Shown here piece after piece: positions 40,912 through 49,936 of a DNA stretch of 64,000 bases. The notes under the pieces are model-generated. The model did no database searches and was not told where the DNA came from. It worked only from the letters and a program-made list of their open reading frames with translations. Position 1 is the first letter of the stretch. Every line of letters begins with the position of its first letter. The stretch spans positions 1 through 64,000 of the IMG/VR virus record IMGVR_UViG_3300032246_001180. One strand, written 5' to 3'. The DNA comes from a virus. The position numbers were made by a program, and so were the translations under genes.

Positions 40912-41465
40912 AACAAAAATTCATTAACGCTTACATGGATGTTGCCCGCCGTTTTGCACAGTTATCTAGTGCAAGACGATTAAAGGTGGGTGCCATCATT
41001 GTCAAAGACGATAGGATTATTTCTATTGGTTACAATGGTATGCCTGCCGGTTGGGACAATAATTGTGAACATAAAGAATATATGGATCCAGATGCTGGTG
41101 GTTGGTTAAGTCCGGATGAAATTGAACAACGATGGCCTAACCAAGAACAACAATTACCAAAAGAATCAAATATTTGGAAACGATATTCTCTTAAAACCAA
41201 AGATGAAGTCATTCATGCCGAAGCTAATGCGATTGCCAAACTTGCTAAGTGTACCGAATCAGGGGACGGATCCACCATGTTCCTGACCCATGCACCGTGC
41301 ATACATTGTGCCAAACAGATTTATACCGCAGGCATTAAAACGGTATATTTTGGTTCGGCATATAGGGACGATATAGGCTTGACATTTCTGAAAAAGTGTG
41401 ATATACTAGTACATCAAGTGAATAGAGATGTTTCACCTGGTGAAATTGACACTATCGCTAAATAG
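40908..41465 (+). CDS. dCMP deaminase
   Basis: VGAIIVKD; GYNGMP; HAEANA; PCIHC. Confidence 0.9.
   Translation: MKQKFINAYMDVARRFAQLSSARRLKVGAIIVKDDRIISIGYNGMPAGWDNNCEHKEYMDPDAGGWLSPDEIEQRWPNQEQQLPKESNIWKRYSLKTKDEVIHAEANAIAKLAKCTESGDGSTMFLTHAPCIHCAKQIYTAGIKTVYFGSAYRDDIGLTFLKKCDILVHQVNRDVSPGEIDTIAK
41379..41407 (+). promoter_or_regulatory. Sigma70-type promoter inside the 3' end of dCMP deaminase
   Basis: TTGACA-17-TATACT with extended -10 TG. Confidence 0.65.
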
Positions 41466-41515
41466 AAAAGGGTGTCAGTCGTACTATAGTCTTAATTGTG
41501 CAAGGATAAGGCAAA

Positions 41516-42085
41516 ATGAAACTGAGCATAATTGGTTGTCCTGATAAAAAAAGATTTCGTCCGTATATCAAAAGAGCAGCATTGTTTTATGCTGGAGAAT
41601 TGCTTACGCCGAAAATGAGAGAAAACGTTTATATAAAAATTAAGTTTAATAGTAAGATTGATGCTTTTGGTTATGCCTCTGTAGAAGATTATAATGATAG
41701 CGGTAAACCTAGAGATTTTTTAATTGAGTTGTATCCGCATCTAGCTGCATATGATATATTGAAAACTCTAGCACATGAAATGGTTCATGTAAAGCAATAT
41801 GCATATTCAGAAATGAATGAAGAAGGAAATAGATGGAAAGGCAATCGTGTGGATTTATCAACGATTGATTACTGGACTGAACCGTGGGAAATAGAAGCAC
41901 ACGGAATGGAACCAGGATTATTTACAAAGTTTGCAATCAAGGAAAAGTTGTGGGAAGTTTTTGACTATGTGCAGAATCCAGATAGTCCAATAGTACCTGA
42001 AATGTTAGGATTTAAAGAAGATAAGTCGGAAAATATTGTAATCACAACATTAGAAACAGAAGATAACACCTATATACAATTATGA
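41516..42085 (+). CDS. Zincin-like metallopeptidase
   Basis: TLAHEMVHVKQ (HExxH) and PWEIEA. Confidence 0.7.
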   Translation: MKLSIIGCPDKKRFRPYIKRAALFYAGELLTPKMRENVYIKIKFNSKIDAFGYASVEDYNDSGKPRDFLIELYPHLAAYDILKTLAHEMVHVKQYAYSEMNEEGNRWKGNRVDLSTIDYWTEPWEIEAHGMEPGLFTKFAIKEKLWEVFDYVQNPDSPIVPEMLGFKEDKSENIVITTLETEDNTYIQL

Positions 42086-42156
42086 AAAATACAAATTACA
42101 CATCACTACCAACAAATTTATGGCTCTTGAGTTTAGCCAGAATGGGGTTCGTGTAA
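42082..42156 (+). CDS. Putative Leu-rich attenuator leader peptide (24 aa)
   Basis: MKNTNYTSLPTNLWLLSLARMGFV; ATGA overlap with upstream gene; 3' end complementary to terminator arm. Confidence 0.6.
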   Translation: MKNTNYTSLPTNLWLLSLARMGFV

Positions 42157-42181
42157 ACAATTCGTTGAGAATTACATACAG

Positions 42182-42212
42182 AACCCTAGACTAAACATCT
42201 AGGGTTTTTTTT
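42182..42212 (+). terminator. Intrinsic terminator of attenuator 1
   Basis: AACCCTAGA-ctaaaca-TCTAGGGTT within an 8-T tract. Confidence 0.82.
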
Positions 42213-42226
42213 CGTTTATGTTTTTT

Positions 42227-42303
42227 GCCCCGATGACGGAATTGGTATACGTGCTGGTCTTAGAAACCAGATTTTGCGAGTTCGACTCTCGCTTGGGGCA
42301 CCA
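42227..42303 (+). tRNA. tRNA-Leu (anticodon TAG), short variable region
   Basis: GCCCCGA/TTGGGGC acceptor; CTGGT-ct TAG aa-ACCAG; TTCGA; CCA. Confidence 0.85.
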
Positions 42304-42371
42304 ATAAAAAAGTCTTGGACACGCAGACTTTAAAGAGAAGTGGGAGTAGGTGGAAACCCTACACCGAATTT

Positions 42372-42454
42372 GCGGGTATGGTGAAATAGGTAAACACAGC
42401 AGACTTAAAATCTGCCGCTTCGGCTTGCCGGTTCGATTCTGGCTACCCGCACCA
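42372..42454 (+). tRNA. tRNA-Leu (TAA)
   Basis: GCGGGTA/TACCCGC; GCAGA-ct TAA aa-TCTGC; long variable arm; CCA. Confidence 0.9.
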
Positions 42455-42512
42455 AGTTTGTTGTTTTTTTGCAACAGTTGTTGTTTTTTTATTAAATTTT
42501 TATGAAAAGTGC

Positions 42513-42541
42513 TTGACATTTAAGAAAATATCCTATATACT
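42513..42541 (+). promoter_or_regulatory. Sigma70 promoter with predicted +1 at the ATG of leader 2
   Basis: TTGACA-17-TATACT; AT-rich upstream region; ATG begins 7 nt after the -10. Confidence 0.8.
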
Positions 42542-42547
42542 ATCACT

Positions 42548-42691
42548 ATGTTAAATTTTAAATCACACTCCTTTTTTAGAACGCCTGATGCCATGTCAAC
42601 AACATGGCAGGCTAACTATCGCTCACCGAAATGTGAGAATCCAGGTAGTATTGTCGGCAAGGGGTTTTGTGATGGAGATGGATGCTGTTAA
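42548..42691 (+). CDS. Putative all-20-amino-acid attenuator leader peptide (47 aa)
   Basis: MLNFKSHSFFRTPDAMSTTWQANYRSPKCENPGSIVGKGFCDGDGCC; contains antiterminator strand GGGTTTTGTG. Confidence 0.62.
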   Translation: MLNFKSHSFFRTPDAMSTTWQANYRSPKCENPGSIVGKGFCDGDGCC

Positions 42692-42718
42692 GTAACTAAT
42701 CTCAAAGAATACAAACAC

Positions 42719-42756
42719 AAAACCCTAGACCTAAAAAATCTAGGGTTTTTTGTTTT
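42719..42756 (+). terminator. Intrinsic terminator of attenuator 2
   Basis: AAAACCCTAGA-cctaaaaaa-TCTAGGGTTTT then TTGTTTT. Confidence 0.82.
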
Positions 42757-42784
42757 CGTTCTTACGAAAATTGCTCTTTAAAAA
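42754..42784 (+). promoter_or_regulatory. rrn-type boxB-like hairpin and boxA
   Basis: TTTCGT-tctt-ACGAAA then TGCTCTTTAAAAA (E. coli rrn boxA is TGCTCTTTAACA). Confidence 0.65.
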
Positions 42785-42799
42785 CTTATATTGCTTTGT

Positions 42800-42873
42800 T
42801 GGGACATTGTGTAGTGGTAGCACAGCAGACTTTGACTCTGTTAGTCTAGGTTCGATTCCTAGTGTCCCTGCCA
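42800..42873 (+). tRNA. tRNA-Gln (TTG)
   Basis: GCAGA-ct TTG ac-TCTGT; GGTTCGATTCC; CCA. Confidence 0.9.
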
Positions 42874-42878
42874 AAAAT

Positions 42879-42970
42879 GGAAGGTAATGCAGCGGGGTTG
42901 GTCCTGCGACTGGCCTTGAAAACCAGGTTCTGAGAAATCGGATGGGGTTCGACTCCTCTGCCTTCCACCA
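42879..42970 (+). tRNA. tRNA-Ser (TGA)
   Basis: GGAAGGT/GCCTTCC; ct TGA aa; long variable arm; CCA. Confidence 0.88.
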
Positions 42971-43095
42971 TATAAAAGCTCTTTGTGTAACTACAATGGA
43001 ACACCGAAATACTTGTCAATGTCGACCACGAACAAGGACCGGCCATGAAGAAGGGGTTATGTTCGGTTCAATTCCGTCAGAGAGCTTCTATATGG
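42968..43095 (+). ncRNA. Stem-enclosed structured RNA A (unknown)
   Basis: CCATATAAAAGCTCTTTG / CAGAGAGCTTCTATATGG 18-bp stem; internal CGG-TTCAATT-CCG T-loop. Confidence 0.55.
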
Positions 43096-43182
43096 GAGGG
43101 TTGGGTGAGTGGTTAAACCAGCGGTTTGCTAAACCGTCATCCAGAAATGGGTGCATCAGTTCGAATCTGATACCCTCCGCCA
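43095..43182 (+). tRNA. tRNA-Ser (GCT)
   Basis: GGAGGGT/ACCCTCC; GCGGT-tt GCT aa-ACCGT; long arm; CCA. Confidence 0.9.
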
Positions 43183-43187
43183 ATTTT

Positions 43188-43262
43188 CTCGCCATCGTTC
43201 AACGGATAGGACAGCATTCTTCTAAAGTGCGAATGGGGGTTCGATTCCCTCTGGCGAGGCCA
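43188..43262 (+). tRNA. tRNA-Arg (TCT)
   Basis: CTCGCCA/TGGCGAG; GCATT-ct TCT aa-AGTGC. Confidence 0.88.
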
Positions 43263-43268
43263 ATTTGT

Positions 43269-43345
43269 GTGGGCGTGCAGCTGAATGGTTAGGCACCGGA
43301 TTGCAAATCCGTATTATGCAGGTTCGAATCCTGTCGCCCACTCCA
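43269..43345 (+). tRNA. tRNA-Cys (GCA)
   Basis: GTGGGCG/CGCCCAC; U73; tt GCA aa. Confidence 0.9.
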
Positions 43346-43382
43346 AGACTGTTGTATTTTTACAACACATCGAAAATAGTGC

Positions 43383-43452
43383 TTGACTATTTCTGTGGTT
43401 CGTGTAGAATACGTTCTATCGATTGAGAAATTAATCGATTCTTTAAAAATTT
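43383..43452 (+). promoter_or_regulatory. Internal sigma70 promoter with hairpin and boxA-like element
   Basis: TTGACT-16-TAGAAT; ATCGATT..AATCGAT hairpin; TTCTTTAAAAATTT. Confidence 0.6.
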
Positions 43453-43467
43453 GATGTAGTTTTTGAT

Positions 43468-43543
43468 GCACCTATCGTCTAACGGTTAGGACGCTGCCCT
43501 TTCAAGGCGGAAACGTAGGGTTCGATTCCCTCTAGGTGTACCA
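43468..43543 (+). tRNA. tRNA-Glu (TTC)
   Basis: GCACCTA/TAGGTGT; CTGCC-ct TTC aa-GGCGG. Confidence 0.88.
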
Positions 43544-43758
43544 TACTAAAACATATTGGGTTACCAACTCCAGTAGGTACCTAGGAGAGATAATATCTGT
43601 GGCCGCACAGACTCTCGCTAGTAGTACATGAAGCAATCCGACTGTGCTGGAATCAGTTGAACCGTAATGTGGAAGTTGTCTTATCGGTAGACGAAACCGT
43701 GAGAAGCCAGATGAAGTTCTGGAACGACAACGACACCCCAATGTGTTTTAGTATGGTA
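43539..43758 (+). ncRNA. Stem-enclosed structured RNA B (unknown, about 220 nt)
   Basis: 22-bp closing stem TACCATACTAAAACATATTGGG / CCCAATGTGTTTTAGTATGGTA; several internal hairpins. Confidence 0.6.
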
Positions 43759-43780
43759 TTTTTTAAACAAGGAGAAAGTA

Positions 43781-43822
43781 ATGAAACGAAAATTAAAACC
43801 TCGAAAGATTATGGGGGTATAA
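43781..43822 (+). CDS. Lys/Arg-rich 13-aa micro-ORF overlapping tRNA-Lys
   Basis: AAGGAGA SD; MKRKLKPRKIMGV. Confidence 0.45.
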   Translation: MKRKLKPRKIMGV

Positions 43823-43887
43823 CTTAACGGCTAAAGTAGTAGGCTTTTAACCTATTAATCAGAGTTCGATTCTCTGTACCCCTACCA
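43813..43887 (+). tRNA. tRNA-Lys (TTT)
   Basis: GGGGGTA/TACCCCT; GTAGG-ct TTT aa-CCTAT. Confidence 0.9.
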
Positions 43888-43982
43888 TATAAAAACACTC
43901 TAAACTGGACGCAGGTTCTATGAAGCAAGACCTCGGGGTCATGTCCGAGAAGGTGTGGAGAATGAGAGTGTTTCTATATGGT
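43884..43982 (+). ncRNA. Stem-enclosed structured RNA C (unknown)
   Basis: ACCATATAAAAACACTCT / AGAGTGTTTCTATATGGT 18-bp stem with one A-C mismatch. Confidence 0.55.
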
Positions 43983-44054
43983 GATGTAGCACAACGGTAG
44001 TGCATCTGCTTCATACGCAGGAGGTTAGTGGCTCGATTCCACTCATCACCACCA
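43980..44054 (+). tRNA. tRNA-Met (CAT), probably elongator
   Basis: GGTGATG/CATCACC; tt CAT ac loop. Confidence 0.8.
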
Positions 44055-44060
44055 GATTTT

Positions 44061-44135
44061 GCCCCGTTAATATAACGGCTATTATGCCCGCCTGTCCAGC
44101 GGAGAACAGGAGTTCGACTCTCCTACGGGGCGCCA
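44061..44135 (+). tRNA. tRNA-Asp (GTC)
   Basis: GCCCCGT/ACGGGGC; G73; ct GTC ca. Confidence 0.87.
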
Positions 44136-44142
44136 AGTTTAT

Positions 44143-44217
44143 TCCAGAGTAGCACAGCGGTAGTGCAGTTGACTGTTAATCAATTGGTCGTAGGTTCGAT
44201 CCCTGCCTCTGGAGCCA
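44143..44217 (+). tRNA. tRNA-Asn (GTT)
   Basis: TCCAGAG/CTCTGGA; ct GTT aa. Confidence 0.92.
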
Positions 44218-44230
44218 GTTAGTAAGTTTA

Positions 44231-44319
44231 GGAAGTGTGCGCTGAATTGGTTGAAGGCAACGGACTGTAAATCCGCCACATAAGAAACATTGTAGGTTCG
44301 AATCCTACCACTTCCACCA
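44231..44319 (+). tRNA. tRNA-Tyr (GTA)
   Basis: GGAAGTG/CACTTCC; ct GTA aa; long variable region. Confidence 0.9.
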
Positions 44320-44323
44320 AATA

Positions 44324-44397
44324 GCCTCTTTAGTTTAATGGTAGAACTCCGCTTTTACACAGCGGGTACGGCAGTTCGATTCTGTCAAGAGGCACCA
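44324..44397 (+). tRNA. tRNA-Val (TAC)
   Basis: GCCTCTT/AAGAGGC; CCGCT-tt TAC ac-AGCGG. Confidence 0.88.
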
Positions 44398-44399
44398 AT

Positions 44400-44475
44400 G
44401 CCAAGATAGCTCAGTTGGTAGAGCACCTGTCTGAAGAACAGGGTGTGGTTGGTTCGATCCCAACTCTTGGTGCCA
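44400..44475 (+). tRNA. tRNA-Phe (GAA)
   Basis: GCCAAGA/TCTTGGT; CCTGT-ct GAA ga-ACAGG. Confidence 0.9.
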
Positions 44476-44483
44476 AATTTTTT

Positions 44484-44557
44484 GCCCTATTAGTTAAATG
44501 GTAGAACATCGGTTTTGTAATCCGAGGACGGGAGTTCGATTCTCTCATGGGGCACCA
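44484..44557 (+). tRNA. tRNA-Thr (TGT)
   Basis: GCCCTAT/ATGGGGC; tt TGT aa. Confidence 0.9.
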
Positions 44558-44571
44558 TTTAAAGGAATACG

Positions 44572-44817
44572 ATGTTAGATTATATCGTAACATTTTTAGC
44601 AATATTTTTACTTGATGTAGTGTACACTTATTATTTACGTTGTGTACAAAATAACAATGTCTTAGGTGCCAGTATATGGTCTATCGCTTGTTATTTGTTA
44701 GGCAGTTTAGCAGTAATTAATTATACAACAAATCATTGGTTGTTATTGCCAGCAATAGCAGGTGCTTTTTGTGGCACTTATGTGGGTATGACAATTAAAA
44801 AGAATAACGGAGTATAG
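44572..44817 (+). CDS. Small membrane protein (about 3 TM segments)
   Basis: AAAGGA SD; hydrophobic segments; stop falls inside tRNA-Pro. Confidence 0.6.
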   Translation: MLDYIVTFLAIFLLDVVYTYYLRCVQNNNVLGASIWSIACYLLGSLAVINYTTNHWLLLPAIAGAFCGTYVGMTIKKNNGV

Positions 44818-44884
44818 CACAGCCAGATAGTGCGCTCGGTTTGGGACCGAGAGGTCGCAGGTTTGATTCCTGCTACTCCGACCA
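44808..44884 (+). tRNA. tRNA-Pro (TGG)
   Basis: CGGAGTA/TACTCCG; CTCGG-tt TGG ga-CCGAG. Confidence 0.9.
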
Positions 44885-44889
44885 TTTAA

Positions 44890-44964
44890 GGGGGATTGGC
44901 GTAATTGGGAACGCAGTAGCTTTGCAAGCTTCAGTCGGGAGTTCGAATCTCCCATTCTCCACCA
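44890..44964 (+). tRNA. tRNA-Ala (TGC)
   Basis: GGGGGAT/ATTCTCC with G3-U70; tt TGC aa. Confidence 0.9.
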
Positions 44965-45021
44965 TTTTAAGTTTACAATAAAGTTTTTTAAGTTTACAAT
45001 AAAGTTTTTTAAGTTTACAAT
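44965..45021. repeat. 21-bp tandem repeat, about 2.7 copies
   Basis: Unit TTTTTTAAGTTTACAATAAAG; GTTTACAAT at 44971, 44992, 45013. Confidence 0.9.
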
Positions 45022-45096
45022 CGGTCCTTAGTAAAATGAATATTACACAGCGCTACGAACGCTGAAGTGGGAGTTTGATTCTCTCAGGACCGGCCA
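45022..45096 (+). tRNA. tRNA-Arg (ACG)
   Basis: CGGTCCT/AGGACCG; CAGCG-ct ACG aa-CGCTG. Confidence 0.85.
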
Positions 45097-45098
45097 TC

Positions 45099-45172
45099 AC
45101 TCGCATAGCTCAAAGGTAGAGCACTCGCTTGATAAGCGATAGACGAAGGATCGTTACCTTCTGTGAGTACCA
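45099..45172 (+). tRNA. tRNA-Ile (GAT), atypical T-loop
   Basis: ACTCGCA/TGTGAGT; tt GAT aa; T-loop ATCGTTA. Confidence 0.8.
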
Positions 45173-45175
45173 TGT

Positions 45176-45250
45176 ATCTCGCTGGTGTTAACGGCAGCAT
45201 AGCGGTCTCCAAAACCGAAGGACGGGGTTCGAATCCCTGGCGGGGTGCCA
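45176..45250 (+). tRNA. tRNA-Trp (CCA)
   Basis: ct CCA aa; GGTTCGAATCC; G73; CCA. Confidence 0.88.
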
Positions 45251-45272
45251 ATTATAATAAAAAGGTGTAATC

Positions 45273-45746
45273 ATGCGTAAATTAAATTTAGATGAAGTCA
45301 TTTCGTTTATCGAACAACAATCTCCAGAAAGTAAAGTTTATATTGGTTGTGATTCAGAGCGAGTTATTGTTGACGGCGTACCTTATGCTGATTATGTTCT
45401 TGCAATTGTAGTACACATCAATGGCAACAATGGTTGCAAATTATTTGGTGAAGTTAGTAGAGAAAGAGATTACGACCAGAAAAGAAACAAGCCTAGATAT
45501 AGGTTGATGAATGAAGTTTACAAGGTTTCAGAATTATATTTAAACCTTGTTAAAGTTTTAGTTGACCGTGATATTCAAGTTCACCTAGATATTAATCCAG
45601 ATGAAATGCACGGTTCATCTTGTGTTATCAATGAAGCGATTGGCTATATTAAAGGAACTTGCAATGTAATACCTCTGGTTAAACCAGAAGCGTTTGCGGC
45701 CTCTTATGCAGCTGACCGTTTTAAAGGACTAAAAAAGGCAGCTTGA
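45273..45746 (+). CDS. RNase H-like YkuK (DUF458) family protein
   Basis: YIGCDS; RLMNEV; VHLDIN; KPEAFAASYAADR. Confidence 0.75.
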   Translation: MRKLNLDEVISFIEQQSPESKVYIGCDSERVIVDGVPYADYVLAIVVHINGNNGCKLFGEVSRERDYDQKRNKPRYRLMNEVYKVSELYLNLVKVLVDRDIQVHLDINPDEMHGSSCVINEAIGYIKGTCNVIPLVKPEAFAASYAADRFKGLKKAA

Positions 45747-45763
45747 ACATATGAGAGATTACA

Positions 45764-46210
45764 ATGATATCAACAATAAAAACAATAACAGAACAATTTC
45801 TTTCTCTTTTACTTGATGATCCAGTAAGACCATCAATACCACATCTCGACCGTGTAGGTGAGAACAAGGATATTTTTGTTTTTCGGGGAGAAGATGATTC
45901 TATAAAAGCAATTACTTGCGTTAGTTACCAAGTAACTGTACCAACATCAGAGGCGGAATTATTTGAAAGATGTTCCACTCCGACTGTGGCAGTATTCTAT
46001 ACAATTTGGAGTTATGCGCCAGGTGCTGGTCGCCAATTGATATTCGATGCTGTACAATACATAAAAGAAAATAGAAAAGATATTAACAGATTTGTAACAC
46101 TTTCACCTAAAACTCATATGGCACGAAAGTTCCATACAAGAAACGGTGCAATGGTGTTTCGTGATAATCCTGAAACGGTGAATTACGAATACAAGAATGT
46201 AGTTCTTTAA
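45764..46210 (+). CDS. Hypothetical protein, possible GNAT-like fold
   Basis: DDPVRP; FYTIWSY..GAGRQLI; VTLSPKT.MARKFH.RNGA. Confidence 0.5.
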   Translation: MISTIKTITEQFLSLLLDDPVRPSIPHLDRVGENKDIFVFRGEDDSIKAITCVSYQVTVPTSEAELFERCSTPTVAVFYTIWSYAPGAGRQLIFDAVQYIKENRKDINRFVTLSPKTHMARKFHTRNGAMVFRDNPETVNYEYKNVVL

Positions 46211-46284
46211 GCGGGATTAGTTTAATGGTCAAACGAAACCTTGCCAAGGTTTAGTCAGGAGTTCGATTCTCCTATCCCGCTCCA
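46211..46284 (+). tRNA. tRNA-Gly (GCC)
   Basis: GCGGGAT/ATCCCGC; U73; tt GCC aa. Confidence 0.9.
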
Positions 46285-46366
46285 TTTAAGAGTGCAGGCT
46301 CTTTTTAAATCCTGCCTTTGTGTGGTACCGAACATCGCTACTGCTTGGATAAGCATCGGTACATTT

Positions 46367-46440
46367 GCAGGGTTAGTTTAATGGTAAAACTCCATCCTTC
46401 CAAGTTGGTGTCGTGAGTTCGATTCTCACACTCTGCTCCA
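46367..46440 (+). tRNA. tRNA-Gly (TCC)
   Basis: GCAGGGT/ACTCTGC; U73; ct TCC aa. Confidence 0.9.
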
Positions 46441-46446
46441 GTTTAT

Positions 46447-46521
46447 GGAGAAATTAGTTTAGTGGTAAAACCACGGGTTGTGATTCCGTTATCACGGGTT
46501 CGATTCCCGTATTTCTCCCCA
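46447..46521 (+). tRNA. tRNA-His (GTG)
   Basis: G-1:C73 pair; tt GTG at. Confidence 0.9.
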
Positions 46522-46525
46522 ATTT

Positions 46526-46600
46526 GGGCCAATAGCTTAATGGTAAAGCAATCGACTCATAATCGATTGAGTCTTGGTTCAATTCCAAGTTGGCCCACCA
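46526..46600 (+). tRNA. tRNA with CAT anticodon, probably Ile2 (lysidine)
   Basis: GGGCCAA/TTGGCCC; ATCGA-ct CAT aa-TCGAT; Ile2 identity inferred. Confidence 0.7.
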
Positions 46601-46618
46601 AGTTTGCCATAGATAGTG

Positions 46619-46647
46619 TTGACAAAGCAATATAAGTATAGTAGAAT
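46619..46647 (+). promoter_or_regulatory. Sigma70 promoter
   Basis: TTGACA-17-TAGAAT. Confidence 0.72.
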
Positions 46648-46655
46648 GATTAAAT

Positions 46656-46722
46656 GCGGTGTGTGATAGCACGACATTCGGTTCCCCCGATTGTTATCTG
46701 AGCAAAGCAGACCACCGCTCCA
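46656..46722 (+). ncRNA. Minimal 67-nt tRNA-Gly-like RNA
   Basis: GCGGTG/CACCGC-T-CCA; mini D arm; central TCC loop; non-canonical T arm. Confidence 0.6.
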
Positions 46723-46746
46723 TTTTATATATTAAAGGCATCTGTA

Positions 46747-46992
46747 ATGATTTTAAAACCAACTGCATCAAATGTTCATATCACCAGAGTTGCCGCAGAG
46801 AAGCAAACTAAATCTGGTATTATTTTAAAAAACACGGAAGAACCTGACAAAGCAAAAGTTGAATCAATAGGTAAAGACGTAACCGACCTTGAAGTTGGTG
46901 ATGTTGTTTTGGTTAACTGGAATAAAGCAATCAAAGTTGATGTTGATTCATACATCATTCCGGAATCAGACATTATTATGGTATTCGAATAA
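46747..46992 (+). CDS. GroES-like co-chaperonin
   Basis: LKPTASNV; KQTKSGIIL; VESIGKDV..LEVGDVVL; ESDII. Confidence 0.8.
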   Translation: MILKPTASNVHITRVAAEKQTKSGIILKNTEEPDKAKVESIGKDVTDLEVGDVVLVNWNKAIKVDVDSYIIPESDIIMVFE

Positions 46993-46997
46993 TTTAT

Positions 46998-47071
46998 AGC
47001 GGATTAGTGAAACGGTATCACAGAGGACTCATAATCCTCAGTTCCTAGTTCGAATCTAGGGTCCGCAACCA
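46998..47071 (+). tRNA. tRNA-Met (CAT), initiator-like
   Basis: A1/A72 mismatch; 3' CCGCAACCA like fMet; GAGGA-ct CAT aa-TCCTC. Confidence 0.72.
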
Positions 47072-47087
47072 ACAAGAAAGGTATATT

Positions 47088-47399
47088 ATGCAAGTGTTAG
47101 CATTGAAATTAGTTACAGGTGAAGACGTTCTTGGAGAACTAGAATCACAATCAGAAACAGAATATGTTATTTGTAATCCAGTAGGTATCTCTATTGTTCG
47201 TGGTAAAGACGGACAACCCAATGTTGGATTCTCACCCTTTCCATTACACTCAGAACAAAAGTCCGGCACAACACTTGCCTTGGCAAAGAAAAATGTAGTA
47301 TACTCTTATACTCCTGCGGAAGATTTTGTTTCAAACTACAATCAAATTTTTGGTTCTGGCATCGTTCTTCCGCCAACTAAATCATTGATTACAGGTTAA
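47088..47399 (+). CDS. Hypothetical Sm-like protein
   Basis: LKLVTGEDVLGE; YNQIFGSGIVLP. Confidence 0.6.
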   Translation: MQVLALKLVTGEDVLGELESQSETEYVICNPVGISIVRGKDGQPNVGFSPFPLHSEQKSGTTLALAKKNVVYSYTPAEDFVSNYNQIFGSGIVLPPTKSLITG

Positions 47400-47401
47400 A
47401 C

Positions 47402-49936
47402 TTGAGTACATTTTACACAAACGTTCAAAGCTTCGGCAATAACATACTGTATCGAGGCATCAAAGACGGCAAGAGAGTAAAAGAGAGGGTCGAGTATTCG
47501 CCTTCTCTTTATATTCCTTCCAAACGTATTACTAATTTTACCACACTAGAAGGCGACTATCTCGACCAAAAGATTTTTGGTTCGATTCGTGAAGCTCGTG
47601 ATTACATCAAACAGTTCGACAAAGTTCAAAATGCTCCGAAGATTTATGGTCAAACTCGGTTTGAATATGCGTTTATTGCGGATGAGAATCGAGGTATGGT
47701 GGATTATGACCAAGATAAAATCTCGGTTGCGGTAGTTGATATTGAAGTTGGTTCAGAGAATGGATTTCCTGATCCATATGAAGCGAACGAACCTATCACA
47801 GCTATCTGTATCAAATACTTGAACGGTGAAACCTATGTCTTTGGTTGCGGCATTTATGAAACTCAAGGCAACGAAATTTATGTCAAGTGTAGAGATGAAT
47901 GGACACTCTGTAAGCGTTTTATGGAATTGTGGACTAAGAAATGTCCCGATGTACTTACTGGTTGGAACACTAAGTTCTTTGATGAACCTTATATCATAAA
48001 TCGTTTCCGTAAAATTCTTGGTGAAGATGAAACCAAGAAATTGTCGCCATGGAATTATATTGGTGAGCGTGAAACTTTCGTCAACAATCGCCGTATGATT
48101 GCTTACAATTTGATGGGTGTTGAATCACTCGACTACATCGAACTATACAAATGGTATGCGCCAGGTGGTAAATCACAAGAATCATATCGACTAGATGCCA
48201 TTGCTCAAGTCGAATTGGGTGAAGGCAAAATTTCATATGACGAATACGATAATCTACATTCACTCTATCGTTTGAACTTTCAAAAGTTTATTGAGTATAA
48301 CATCAAAGACGTTGAACTCATTATCAAACTAGAAGAAAAACTTAAACTCATTGAACTGGCAATTACTCTTGCGTATGATACCAAGACAAATTATCAAGAT
48401 GTATTTGCACAAACTCGTATGTGGGATTCAATGACATATGCCTATCTTTTTGAGAAAGGCATTATTGTTCCACCAAGAGTTACTAAAGAGAAAGATTCCG
48501 CATTTGAAGGTGCATATGTAAAGATTCCACAAGTTGGTTTACATAATTGGGTTGCATCGTTTGACTTGAATAGTTTGTATCCTCATTTGATGATGCAATA
48601 TAATATCTCACCTGAAACATTGATTGAACCACAAGACTATACGGATGAAATGCGTAATGTTCTTTCACAAGGTGTATCTGTTGAAAAACTCTTGAAAAGA
48701 CAAATTGACACTTCAAGTTTGAAGAATGTAACTGTAACTCCTAATGGACAATTCTTCCGTACAGACATTCAAGGCTTCTTACCTAAGATGATGGAAGAAA
48801 TGTATACTGACCGTAGCAAATTCAAGAAGATGATGTTGCGAGCAAAGCAGACGTATGAAGATGAAACAGACGAATCGAAAAAATATGAAATTGAAAAACG
48901 AATTGCCAAGTATAACAACATACAACTTGCAAAGAAGGTTTCTCTTAATTCTGCTTATGGTGCTCTTGGTAGCCAGTATTTCCGCTTTTATGATTTGCGA
49001 ATGGCTCTTGGCGTTACTTCTGCTGGCCAGTTGTCTATTCGGTGGATTGAAAATAAAATAAATGAATACATGAACAAACTTCTCGGTACTGAAAGTGATT
49101 ATGTAATTGCATCTGATACCGATTCAATCTATCTCCGTATGGGTGAATTGGTCAATAAATTCATCAAAGATACCTCAGACAAACAAAAGGTAATCTCACT
49201 CATGGATAAAATCTGTGAAGAAAAGATACAACCTTATATTGACAAATCGTATCAAGAACTGGCTGATTATGTTCACGCATATGACCAGAAGATGCAGATG
49301 AAGCGTGAAGGTCTATCTGACAAAGGTATTTGGACTGCCAAGAAACGATACATTCTAAATGTATATAATAATGAAGGCGTTCAATACAACGAACCACAGA
49401 TGAAGGTAATGGGTCTAGAGATGATTAAATCATCAACACCATCATCTATTCGTGAGAAGATGAAGAAGGCTATTGAATTAATGGTGAACGGAACACAAGA
49501 AGATATTCATACATTCATTGCCGATTTCAGGAAAGAATTCAAGACGTTACCCGCTGAAGAAATTTCTTTTCCTCGGGGTTTGAACGGGCTAAATACCTAT
49601 TCCGATGCGGCGACCTTATACAAAAAAGGTACACCAATTCATGTTAAAGGTGCGATATTATATAATCATTACCTTAAACAGAAAAACTTAACCAAGAAGT
49701 ACCCGCTCATACAAGAAGGTGAGAAGTTAAAATTCACCTATCTGAAAATGCCTAATCCATTTAAAGATACTGTCATTTCGTATCCACAACGATTACCAAA
49801 AGAATTTGAATTGCAAGAGTATATCGATTATGATATGCAGTTTGATAAGGCCTTTTTAGAACCAATCAAAGTAATTTTGGACTGTATGGGTTGGTCAACA
49901 GAAAAAACTAGTTCTATAGAGGATTTCTTCACATGA
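47402..49936 (+). CDS. gp43: Family B DNA polymerase gp43
   Basis: DIEV exonuclease; SFDLNSLYP; KVSLNSAYG; SDTDS; KKRY. Confidence 0.97.
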   Translation: MSTFYTNVQSFGNNILYRGIKDGKRVKERVEYSPSLYIPSKRITNFTTLEGDYLDQKIFGSIREARDYIKQFDKVQNAPKIYGQTRFEYAFIADENRGMVDYDQDKISVAVVDIEVGSENGFPDPYEANEPITAICIKYLNGETYVFGCGIYETQGNEIYVKCRDEWTLCKRFMELWTKKCPDVLTGWNTKFFDEPYIINRFRKILGEDETKKLSPWNYIGERETFVNNRRMIAYNLMGVESLDYIELYKWYAPGGKSQESYRLDAIAQVELGEGKISYDEYDNLHSLYRLNFQKFIEYNIKDVELIIKLEEKLKLIELAITLAYDTKTNYQDVFAQTRMWDSMTYAYLFEKGIIVPPRVTKEKDSAFEGAYVKIPQVGLHNWVASFDLNSLYPHLMMQYNISPETLIEPQDYTDEMRNVLSQGVSVEKLLKRQIDTSSLKNVTVTPNGQFFRTDIQGFLPKMMEEMYTDRSKFKKMMLRAKQTYEDETDESKKYEIEKRIAKYNNIQLAKKVSLNSAYGALGSQYFRFYDLRMALGVTSAGQLSIRWIENKINEYMNKLLGTESDYVIASDTDSIYLRMGELVNKFIKDTSDKQKVISLMDKICEEKIQPYIDKSYQELADYVHAYDQKMQMKREGLSDKGIWTAKKRYILNVYNNEGVQYNEPQMKVMGLEMIKSSTPSSIREKMKKAIELMVNGTQEDIHTFIADFRKEFKTLPAEEISFPRGLNGLNTYSDAATLYKKGTPIHVKGAILYNHYLKQKNLTKKYPLIQEGEKLKFTYLKMPNPFKDTVISYPQRLPKEFELQEYIDYDMQFDKAFLEPIKVILDCMGWSTEKTSSIEDFFT

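Follow-up and report, generated by a model that had tools for sequence, protein, structure and literature searches.

Does a short open reading frame (ORF), five of whose 24 codons specify leucine, decide whether the two tRNA-Leu genes directly behind it are transcribed? The question is raised by a locus in the first 64 kb (positions 1 to 64,000, hereafter the window) of the 168-kb IMG/VR virus record IMGVR_UViG_3300032246_001180, where this ORF, a candidate antiterminator and an intrinsic terminator stand in front of the genes for tRNA-Leu(UAG) and tRNA-Leu(UAA). An original prediction, made from the letters of the sequence, had proposed a feedback loop in which shortage of tRNA-Leu induces transcription of tRNA-Leu. 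Each feature that this prediction listed was located in the sequence at its given position. The comparative and structural evidence described here supports that proposal, as related units keep the ORF, the antiterminator and the terminator. The element is likely to be a ribosome-mediated leader-peptide transcription attenuator, sensitive to leucine decoding, that gates the two tRNA-Leu genes, such that the phage would probably make these tRNAs only when ribosomes read leucine codons slowly.

The window unit was compared with units from related viral and metagenome contigs (designated by L numbers), which were found downstream of relatives of the gene for a 189-amino-acid (aa) protein that precedes the leader, and by pattern matches elsewhere. 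This yielded 22 distinct units composed of leader, antiterminator and terminator, each no more than 35 nucleotides (nt) before a tRNA run, and their carriers are apparently related uncultured freshwater T4-like phages. In all 22 units the leader frame is open and its stop codon lies inside the G-rich strand of the antiterminator. The units were sorted by eye into type A, to which a second attenuator of the window (attenuator 2) belongs, type B, a 30-codon leader preceding Ser/Trp/Cys runs, and type C, the type of the window unit, which includes three Leu-rich leaders (window:42082-42156, L016:1336-1404 and L084:9820-9885, the last identical to L018). Across the 19 type C leaders there is no stop in the leader frame, against 37 and 25 stops in the other two frames. 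A motif search with segment 2, the antiterminator strand formed by the end of the ORF, gave 16 matches, every one of which has an ATG-started ORF of 22-26 codons ending in the motif (in one case lengthened by an upstream ATG in the same frame). No variation is seen in segment 2, third codon positions included, whereas the central part of the ORF differs in residues and in length; fixed synonymous sites combined with a variable middle mark a leader and not a functional peptide. Start signals, too, are conserved in the family, either as a leaderless ATG at the +1 of a predicted promoter or as stop/start (TAA-ATG) coupling to an upstream ORF.

The residues that vary between leaders follow the tRNA genes behind them. 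Here, the gated set of a unit comprises the tRNAs behind its terminator that are separated by no more than 30 nt; beyond such runs come internal promoters or inserted ORFs. The three Leu-rich leaders are those with a tRNA-Leu first, and leaders before runs beginning with Ala, His, Ser, Cys or Trp tRNAs carry those residues instead. The window unit is the narrowest case observed, with two tRNAs for a single amino acid. The mean number of Leu codons is 4.3 in leaders with tRNA-Leu in the gated set and 0.5 in the others, and the corresponding means are 1.8 and 0.2 for Ala, 2.2 and 0.6 for Cys, 2.0 and 0.9 for Pro, 2.9 and 1.8 for Ser, and 1.5 and 0.7 for His. Individual leaders range from 4-5 versus 0-1 for Leu, 1-2 versus about 0 for Ala, and 2-3 versus 0-1 for Cys. 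Trp is absent from one leader only, that of L084, and L084 belongs to the small number of units that gate no tRNA-Trp. When labels were shuffled among these related units, none of 20,000 shuffles reached the observed score for the match between variable residues and gated set; the result did not depend on the number of units (17 or 22) or on the inclusion of Trp, and it persisted with a single unit for each of the 16 distinct sets and after removal of the Leu-type units. Thus leader codon bias tracks the identity of the downstream tRNA across homologues, a comparison that the original prediction had singled out as a check. The Leu codons that follow a shared Leu-Pro-Thr motif stand in different places in the window and in L016/L084, which hints at separate enrichment.

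The window unit itself can fold into two structures that exclude each other. The terminator pairs 42180-90 with 42198-42208 around a loop at 42191-97, has a G+C-cored stem and a T-run at 42205-12, is predicted at -13.7 kcal/mol (z score -4.9) and ends 14 nt before the first tRNA-Leu gene. The antiterminator pairs 42143-50 with 42181-88 and 42152-55 with 42177-80, encloses a small hairpin (42159-73) and reaches -17.9 kcal/mol (z score -3.7), a stability equalled by none of 200 shuffled sequences. Both structures need 42180-88. It had been proposed that the end of the ORF (42144-56) pairs with 42172-87 and so sequesters the left arm of the terminator; both the pairing and the sequestration appear in the fold, although the register is slightly shifted from the one suggested. 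The Leu codons are CTA (42106-08), TTA (42118-20), CTC (42124-26), TTG (42127-29) and TTA (42133-35), the five codons predicted between codons 9 and 18.

Pairing is also maintained in the relatives. All terminator pairs are maintained in 19 relatives (100%), with compensatory changes in two columns; for the antiterminator 87.7% of alignment cells are paired, against about 50% when the partner strand is slid, and a compensatory G-C to U-A double change occurs in the Leu-type relatives. The helix between segment 1, near the start of the ORF, and segment 2 (the 1:2 helix) is paired at 68-74% across the family, against about 50% in slid controls, and is clear in most relatives. All shuffle controls for family pairing were exceeded, which among related sequences is supportive rather than proof. 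A broader terminator pattern matched at least 120 loci in metagenomes, and among the matches listed six have a downstream tRNA; the pattern of terminator plus tRNA-Leu 5′ end matched L084 only. A pattern built from the window's own segment 2 and segment 3 (the 3′ strand of the antiterminator) found no match, and the Leu type is therefore represented by three units and two strain variants.

The consequences of a ribosome on the leader were modelled by treating all RNA as blocked to a point 8-14 nt beyond the first base of the A-site codon, with the transcript ended at the terminator stem, and the results describe folding at equilibrium. For the family, a stall anywhere from about codon 5 to the codon before a conserved Trp gives a terminator probability of 0-0.2, a stall on the Trp gives 0.7-0.8, and a ribosome on later codons or on the stop gives 0.9-1.0. 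Most relatives terminate without a ribosome as well (probability about 0.97, taken from an earlier mask model that allowed pairing of the 5′ end and U-tract and whose numbers are unstable), because segment 1 holds segment 2. The family is thus predicted to follow trp-type logic, in which a stall in the variable codons yields read-through and a ribosome at the stop yields termination. In the window, the terminator probability is about 0 for stalls at codons 3-13, 0.1-0.9 at codons 14-17, 0.6-1.0 at codon 18 and 0.9-1.0 from codon 19 onward, the values varying with the footprint used. Leu codons 9 (CTA) and 13 (TTA) therefore fall in the full read-through zone; they are the only Leu codons wholly within it and are the exact cognates of the UAG and UAA anticodons, so that in the model the cognate codons are placed where a stall frees the antiterminator. 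Folding with the 3′ end of the ORF masked, another check suggested in advance, flips the antiterminator to the terminator.

The leader ORF has a usable start signal upstream of the tRNA-Leu genes. The leader ATG overlaps the TGA of the 189-aa ORF (ATGA), a point absent from the original prediction, and ribosomes probably enter by termination-reinitiation at this overlap rather than by way of a promoter of the leader's own, which the window lacks. The CCTATATAC box that precedes the ATG has a second copy at 42532-40, 7 nt before the ATG of attenuator 2. At this place relatives read CCTATATAA(T), the -10 of a promoter whose +1 falls on the leaderless leader ATG, and strain variants of the window have CCTATATAA (42077 C>A); by this comparison the window's box is a putative remnant of a promoter -10. 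As had been noted, the terminator stem core is common to attenuator 2, CCTATATAC precedes both ATGs and the second leader has one Leu codon; the shared sequences support the view that the two attenuators of the window are paralogous.

Natural variants of the locus were found in contigs from three freshwater DNA runs, a small sample that represents two strains at about 95-96% identity. The contigs bridge the leader, the terminator and both tRNAs and preserve all five Leu codons. In strain A codon 8 is TTA instead of TCA (42104 C>T), which creates a sixth Leu codon inside the read-through zone, and strain B changes TTG to TTA (42129); four other coding changes are non-synonymous and fall at non-Leu codons. 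Changes within the switch lie in loops or turn C-G into U-G pairs, such that pairing is kept, and those of strain B lie in the hairpin at 42159-73. RNA-labelled runs contained short tRNA-like pieces that continue into unlike sequence and were uninformative for expression.

Taken together, these observations suggest the following sequence of events. Polymerase coming from the upstream 189-aa gene would transcribe the leader, which ribosomes would enter at ATGA. If Leu codons were read quickly, the ribosome would reach the last codons or the stop and cover segment 2 (42143-55); segment 3 would then pair with segment 4, the terminator would form and transcription would stop at 42205-12. Lingering at the Leu codons, with codons 9 and 13 weighing most and codons 15-16 contributing partly, would leave segment 2 free to pair with segment 3, so that no terminator forms and polymerase reaches tRNA-Leu(UAG) and tRNA-Leu(UAA). 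The added tRNA-Leu would speed decoding and close a negative feedback loop. As predicted, these two are the only tRNAs between the terminator and the next strong promoter-like site at 42513-41.

Several observations weigh against this account, or against the specificity for leucine within it. At the phage Leu frequency of 7.7%, the chance of at least five Leu in 23 codons is about 0.03, which is weak alone; the strength of the leucine case comes from the family contrast and the structure, not from the count in one ORF. CTC is not readable by standard wobble from anticodon UAG, codons 15-16 are borderline, and codon 18 (TTA) lies outside the read-through zone. The leader has no Shine-Dalgarno sequence and relies on coupling. 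The units are related, so that the shuffles overstate significance and few independent events are involved, and one or two evolutionary events may account for the Leu association. Ser, Thr and Asn, common in all leaders, and single His codons do not discriminate between sets, and Ala has exceptions, with Ala codons in L110, where no tRNA-Ala is gated, and one GCC in the window. Finally, the 1:2 helix of the window, although part of the minimum free energy fold, consists of TTACAC/GTGTAA and a few extra pairs and is no better than shuffled sequence (z score -0.4 for 42082-42160), and without a ribosome the terminator probability is only 0.3-0.8 in the earlier, unstable mask model, varying with where the transcript ends. 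The default state may therefore leak when the leader is untranslated, and any slow translation, not only slow reading of Leu, could open such a switch. Every sequence-level feature of the leader-peptide attenuator class is present except a convincing 1:2 helix.

Alternatively, the unit may be a real ribosome-dependent attenuator that reports general translation speed or ribosome availability, with slowness anywhere in codons 2-16 opening the switch and the Leu enrichment being incidental or adding only a bias. The weak 1:2 helix of the window favours this reading. In the model any stall at codons 3-13 reads through whatever the residue, and the leader holds three Thr codons, three Asn codons and a Trp codon to which no gated tRNA corresponds. 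Against this, leader residues match gated tRNAs across the family, with the Leu counts of gated and ungated leaders not overlapping; the strain variants keep or add Leu codons; and the two codons deepest in the read-through zone are cognate to exactly the two anticodons that are gated. We regard a sensor of general speed as unlikely. A plainer possibility is that the hairpin is simply the terminator of the upstream protein operon and the ORF a product of chance, with tRNA-Leu supplied by constitutive leakage or by a weak promoter overlapping the hairpin (TTGAGA-16-TAGACT, 42165-92). That site scores 9/12, the Leu excess by itself is modest, and plain terminators of the same sequence family do follow the 189-aa gene without a leader in some relatives (L094, L074). 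However, 22 diverged units conserve the ORF, its stop within segment 2 and the antiterminator, a comparable promoter is absent from the corresponding loop of the relatives, and the TTGAGA hexamer (42165-70) is disrupted in strain B by an inserted AAC and a G>A substitution, which weakens the case for a separate tRNA-Leu promoter there. Chance assembly of this kind is improbable.

Two further explanations were considered. If the ORF encoded a functional micro-protein and RNA pairing were secondary, conservation of the N- and C-terminal residues across the family would be accounted for; but these ends, which correspond to segments 1 and 2, are fixed even where changes would be synonymous, and the middle changes residues and length freely, which makes a micro-protein very improbable. 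A protein-independent riboswitch or T-box-like RNA that binds tRNA-Leu directly is brought to mind by the position upstream of translation-apparatus genes and by the terminator/antiterminator pair. An Rfam search of 41000-48000 at E values up to 1 found no T-box, riboswitch or other family for the element, which measures about 130 nt, contains no specifier-loop or T-box motif, and is spanned by a conserved, open ORF equipped with a start; a direct RNA sensor is the least probable of the explanations considered. Even jointly, plain termination, a micro-protein and a direct RNA sensor are unlikely to account for the locus. The leucine-sensitive attenuator is thus the reading that we favour.

The features of the locus are listed in the table. 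The genes around the attenuator include those for rubrerythrin, rubredoxin, dCMP deaminase, a Cpn10-like protein and a family-B DNA polymerase, and the tRNA array behind it spans 42227-47071, with 24 genes according to ARAGORN and 26 according to Rfam. The promoter-like site at 41379-41407, before the 189-aa gene, is the probable source of the transcript that would reach the attenuator. Relatives of the 189-aa protein (45-71% identity) occur in more than 580 viral contigs, apparently mostly freshwater and usually with a tRNA region after the gene; remoter relatives are found in T4-like phages of Caulobacter, Methylophilales, Sinorhizobium and cyanobacteria. Among deposited phages no close relative of the window was found: megablast gave no match, and with blastn the attenuator was unmatched and only tRNAs matched.

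Table. Features of the leader-attenuator unit and its surroundings (window coordinates).
Feature	Start	End	Strand	Basis or remark
Promoter-like site TTGACA-17-TATACT with TG	41379	41407	+	Consensus scan, 11/12 matches
Upstream 189-aa ORF, no Pfam family	41516	42085	+	TGA stop overlaps leader ATG as ATGA
CCTATATAC box	42069	42077	+	4 nt before leader ATG; poor -35 (TAGAAA)
Leader ORF, 24 codons plus TAA (stop 42154-56)	42082	42156	+	ORF list; frame open in 19/19 type C relatives
Segment 1 (TTACAC)	42095	42100	+	Can pair with GTGTAA 42151-56; weak anti-antiterminator in this copy
Segment 2, antiterminator 5′ strand	42143	42155	+	Last four codons and part of stop codon
Small hairpin (AATTC / GAATT) in antiterminator loop	42159	42173	+	Folding
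Segment 3, antiterminator 3′ strand	42177	42188	+	Overlaps terminator left arm
Intrinsic terminator: 11-bp (base pair) stem, 7-nt loop, eight T	42180	42212	+	Folding and sequence
tRNA-Leu(UAG)	42227	42303	+	ARAGORN; Rfam tRNA 61.4 bits
68-nt spacer between the tRNA-Leu genes, small hairpins	42304	42371	+	Consensus scan: no promoter-like site inside
tRNA-Leu(UAA)	42372	42454	+	ARAGORN; Rfam tRNA 59.7 bits
A+T-rich palindrome (TGTTG...CAACA) and two T-runs	42455	42495	+	End of the unit before the next promoter; putative role
Promoter-like site TTGACA-17-TATACT	42513	42541	+	Consensus scan; start of the paralogous attenuator 2 unit

Further observations were made on the same contigs. The spacer between the two tRNA-Leu genes differs at three to four positions in the strain variants. 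The palindrome behind the second gene (TGTTGT-N-ACAACA) recurs directly upstream of promoters within tRNA arrays, and in relatives such as L092, L083 and L100 it immediately precedes internal TTGAC(T/A) promoters; it may act as a weak terminator, as an UP-like element or as a site for a regulator. Attenuator 2 (42513-42760) comprises a promoter, a 47-codon leaderless ORF and a terminator, and its GGGTTTTGTG (42664-73) pairs with CACAAAACCC (42719-28). The unit is present in many relatives, with either a Shine-Dalgarno sequence and a GTG/TTG start or a leaderless ATG, and has a conserved internal hairpin; these relatives often have a second promoter after the terminator, before Gln/Ser/Ile/Cys/Glu tRNAs. 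A sub-threshold Rfam match to Thr_leader falls on the second terminator.

Within the arrays, BoxA-like motifs (TGCTCTTTAAAAA / TGTTCTTTAAAAATT) follow the promoters of tRNA blocks, in the window at 42772-42784 and 43439-43452 and in relatives after internal promoters as well (e.g. L056, L070, L081), which suggests rrn-style antitermination of untranslated tRNA transcripts. Two tRNA-like genes of the window, at 42879-42966 and 43271-43340, were missed by ARAGORN with its default parameters: one is a tRNA that has a long arm and a UGA (Ser) anticodon loop and is matched by the tRNA-Sec model only and below threshold (36.8 bits), and the other is a tRNA-Cys(GCA) with an Rfam score of 43.2 bits. 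In L091 and L165 a terminator of the same family has its GGGTT strand just before the stop of an ORF of at least 54 codons, not of a mini-ORF; a tRNA-Trp follows 9 nt after this terminator in L165 and a tRNA-Glu about 80 nt downstream in L091, so that the end of a real gene may serve as an attenuator in these contigs. The tRNA runs of L194, L088, L146 and L087 contain, downstream of attenuators, ORFs whose cysteine-pair motifs are typical of HNH or GIY-YIG homing endonucleases, and these ORFs split tRNA sets that are contiguous in sister contigs. Many other contigs, including L009 (1075-1150), L022 and L024, encode, directly behind the 189-aa gene, a promoter-driven RNA about 70 nt long; it starts with GCGGT, ends with ACCGCTCCA, has tRNA-like acceptor ends and occurs in two sequence variants, and it is followed by a small lysine-rich ORF and then by tRNA-Thr or tRNA-Met.

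If the attenuator acts as proposed, a textbook attenuation switch would control tRNA genes themselves, and in a virus. This would provide a direct mechanism for regulating phage tRNA arrays, which are usually considered from the viewpoint of codon usage alone, and would show that ribosome speed on chosen codons can serve as a sensor of tRNA supply; the units would in addition be compact natural parts of about 130 nt whose output reports how a selected group of codons is decoded. Because natural variants with differing residue sets are numerous in the family, the idea is directly testable. More speculatively, and we hold this to be doubtful, these phages might run their tRNA genes as an on-demand supply, each block placed behind a test ORF written in the codons of its own tRNAs, with the window as a single-amino-acid (Leu) version. 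Such a sensor would report a tRNA shortage, whose cause could be a host pool poorly matched to phage codon usage or a host defence by which tRNAs are cleaved or depleted, and the phage would replace exactly the missing tRNAs; the role in counter-defence is pure conjecture.

How does the element compare with known systems? No description of tRNA-gene attenuation by cognate-codon leaders was found in the literature. Escherichia coli pheV was considered as a possible precedent with an attenuator-like leader, but the region upstream of pheV in MG1655 shows no such ORF or terminator and the candidate was rejected. The T-box riboswitch binds uncharged tRNA itself and requires neither a ribosome nor an ORF. 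It is alike in sensing the state of a specific tRNA and in placing a terminator/antiterminator switch upstream of translation-related genes, and different in that the window element has an ORF and matched no T-box model. Another known system is the pheM leader of the E. coli pheST operon (phenylalanyl-tRNA synthetase), an attenuator with cognate codons that likewise controls a component of the translation apparatus for the same amino acid; it differs in gating a synthetase rather than a tRNA and in residing on a cellular chromosome.

A similar architecture is that of leader-peptide attenuation in amino-acid biosynthesis, the textbook control exerted by leuL of leuABCD, trpL, hisL and pheL and by the multivalent thrL and ilvL. 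The enterobacterial leaders share with the window unit a short ORF in which codons for the end product under control are clustered, three overlapping helices (1:2, which is only tentative in the window, the 2:3 antiterminator and the 3:4 intrinsic terminator) within about 130 nt, and a leader stop in or next to segment 2, such that termination is favoured when a ribosome stands at the stop; the multivalent thr and ilv leaders resemble those family members that carry several residue types. In contrast to the amino-acid operons, the phage leaders are leaderless or coupled to an upstream ORF and have no Shine-Dalgarno sequence, and in the window the Leu codons are a mix of five rather than a run of one and the 1:2 helix is weak. 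A further difference lies in what is controlled: the phage-borne unit stands before tRNA genes, not biosynthetic enzymes, and the signal would therefore be the supply of tRNA rather than the supply of the amino acid.

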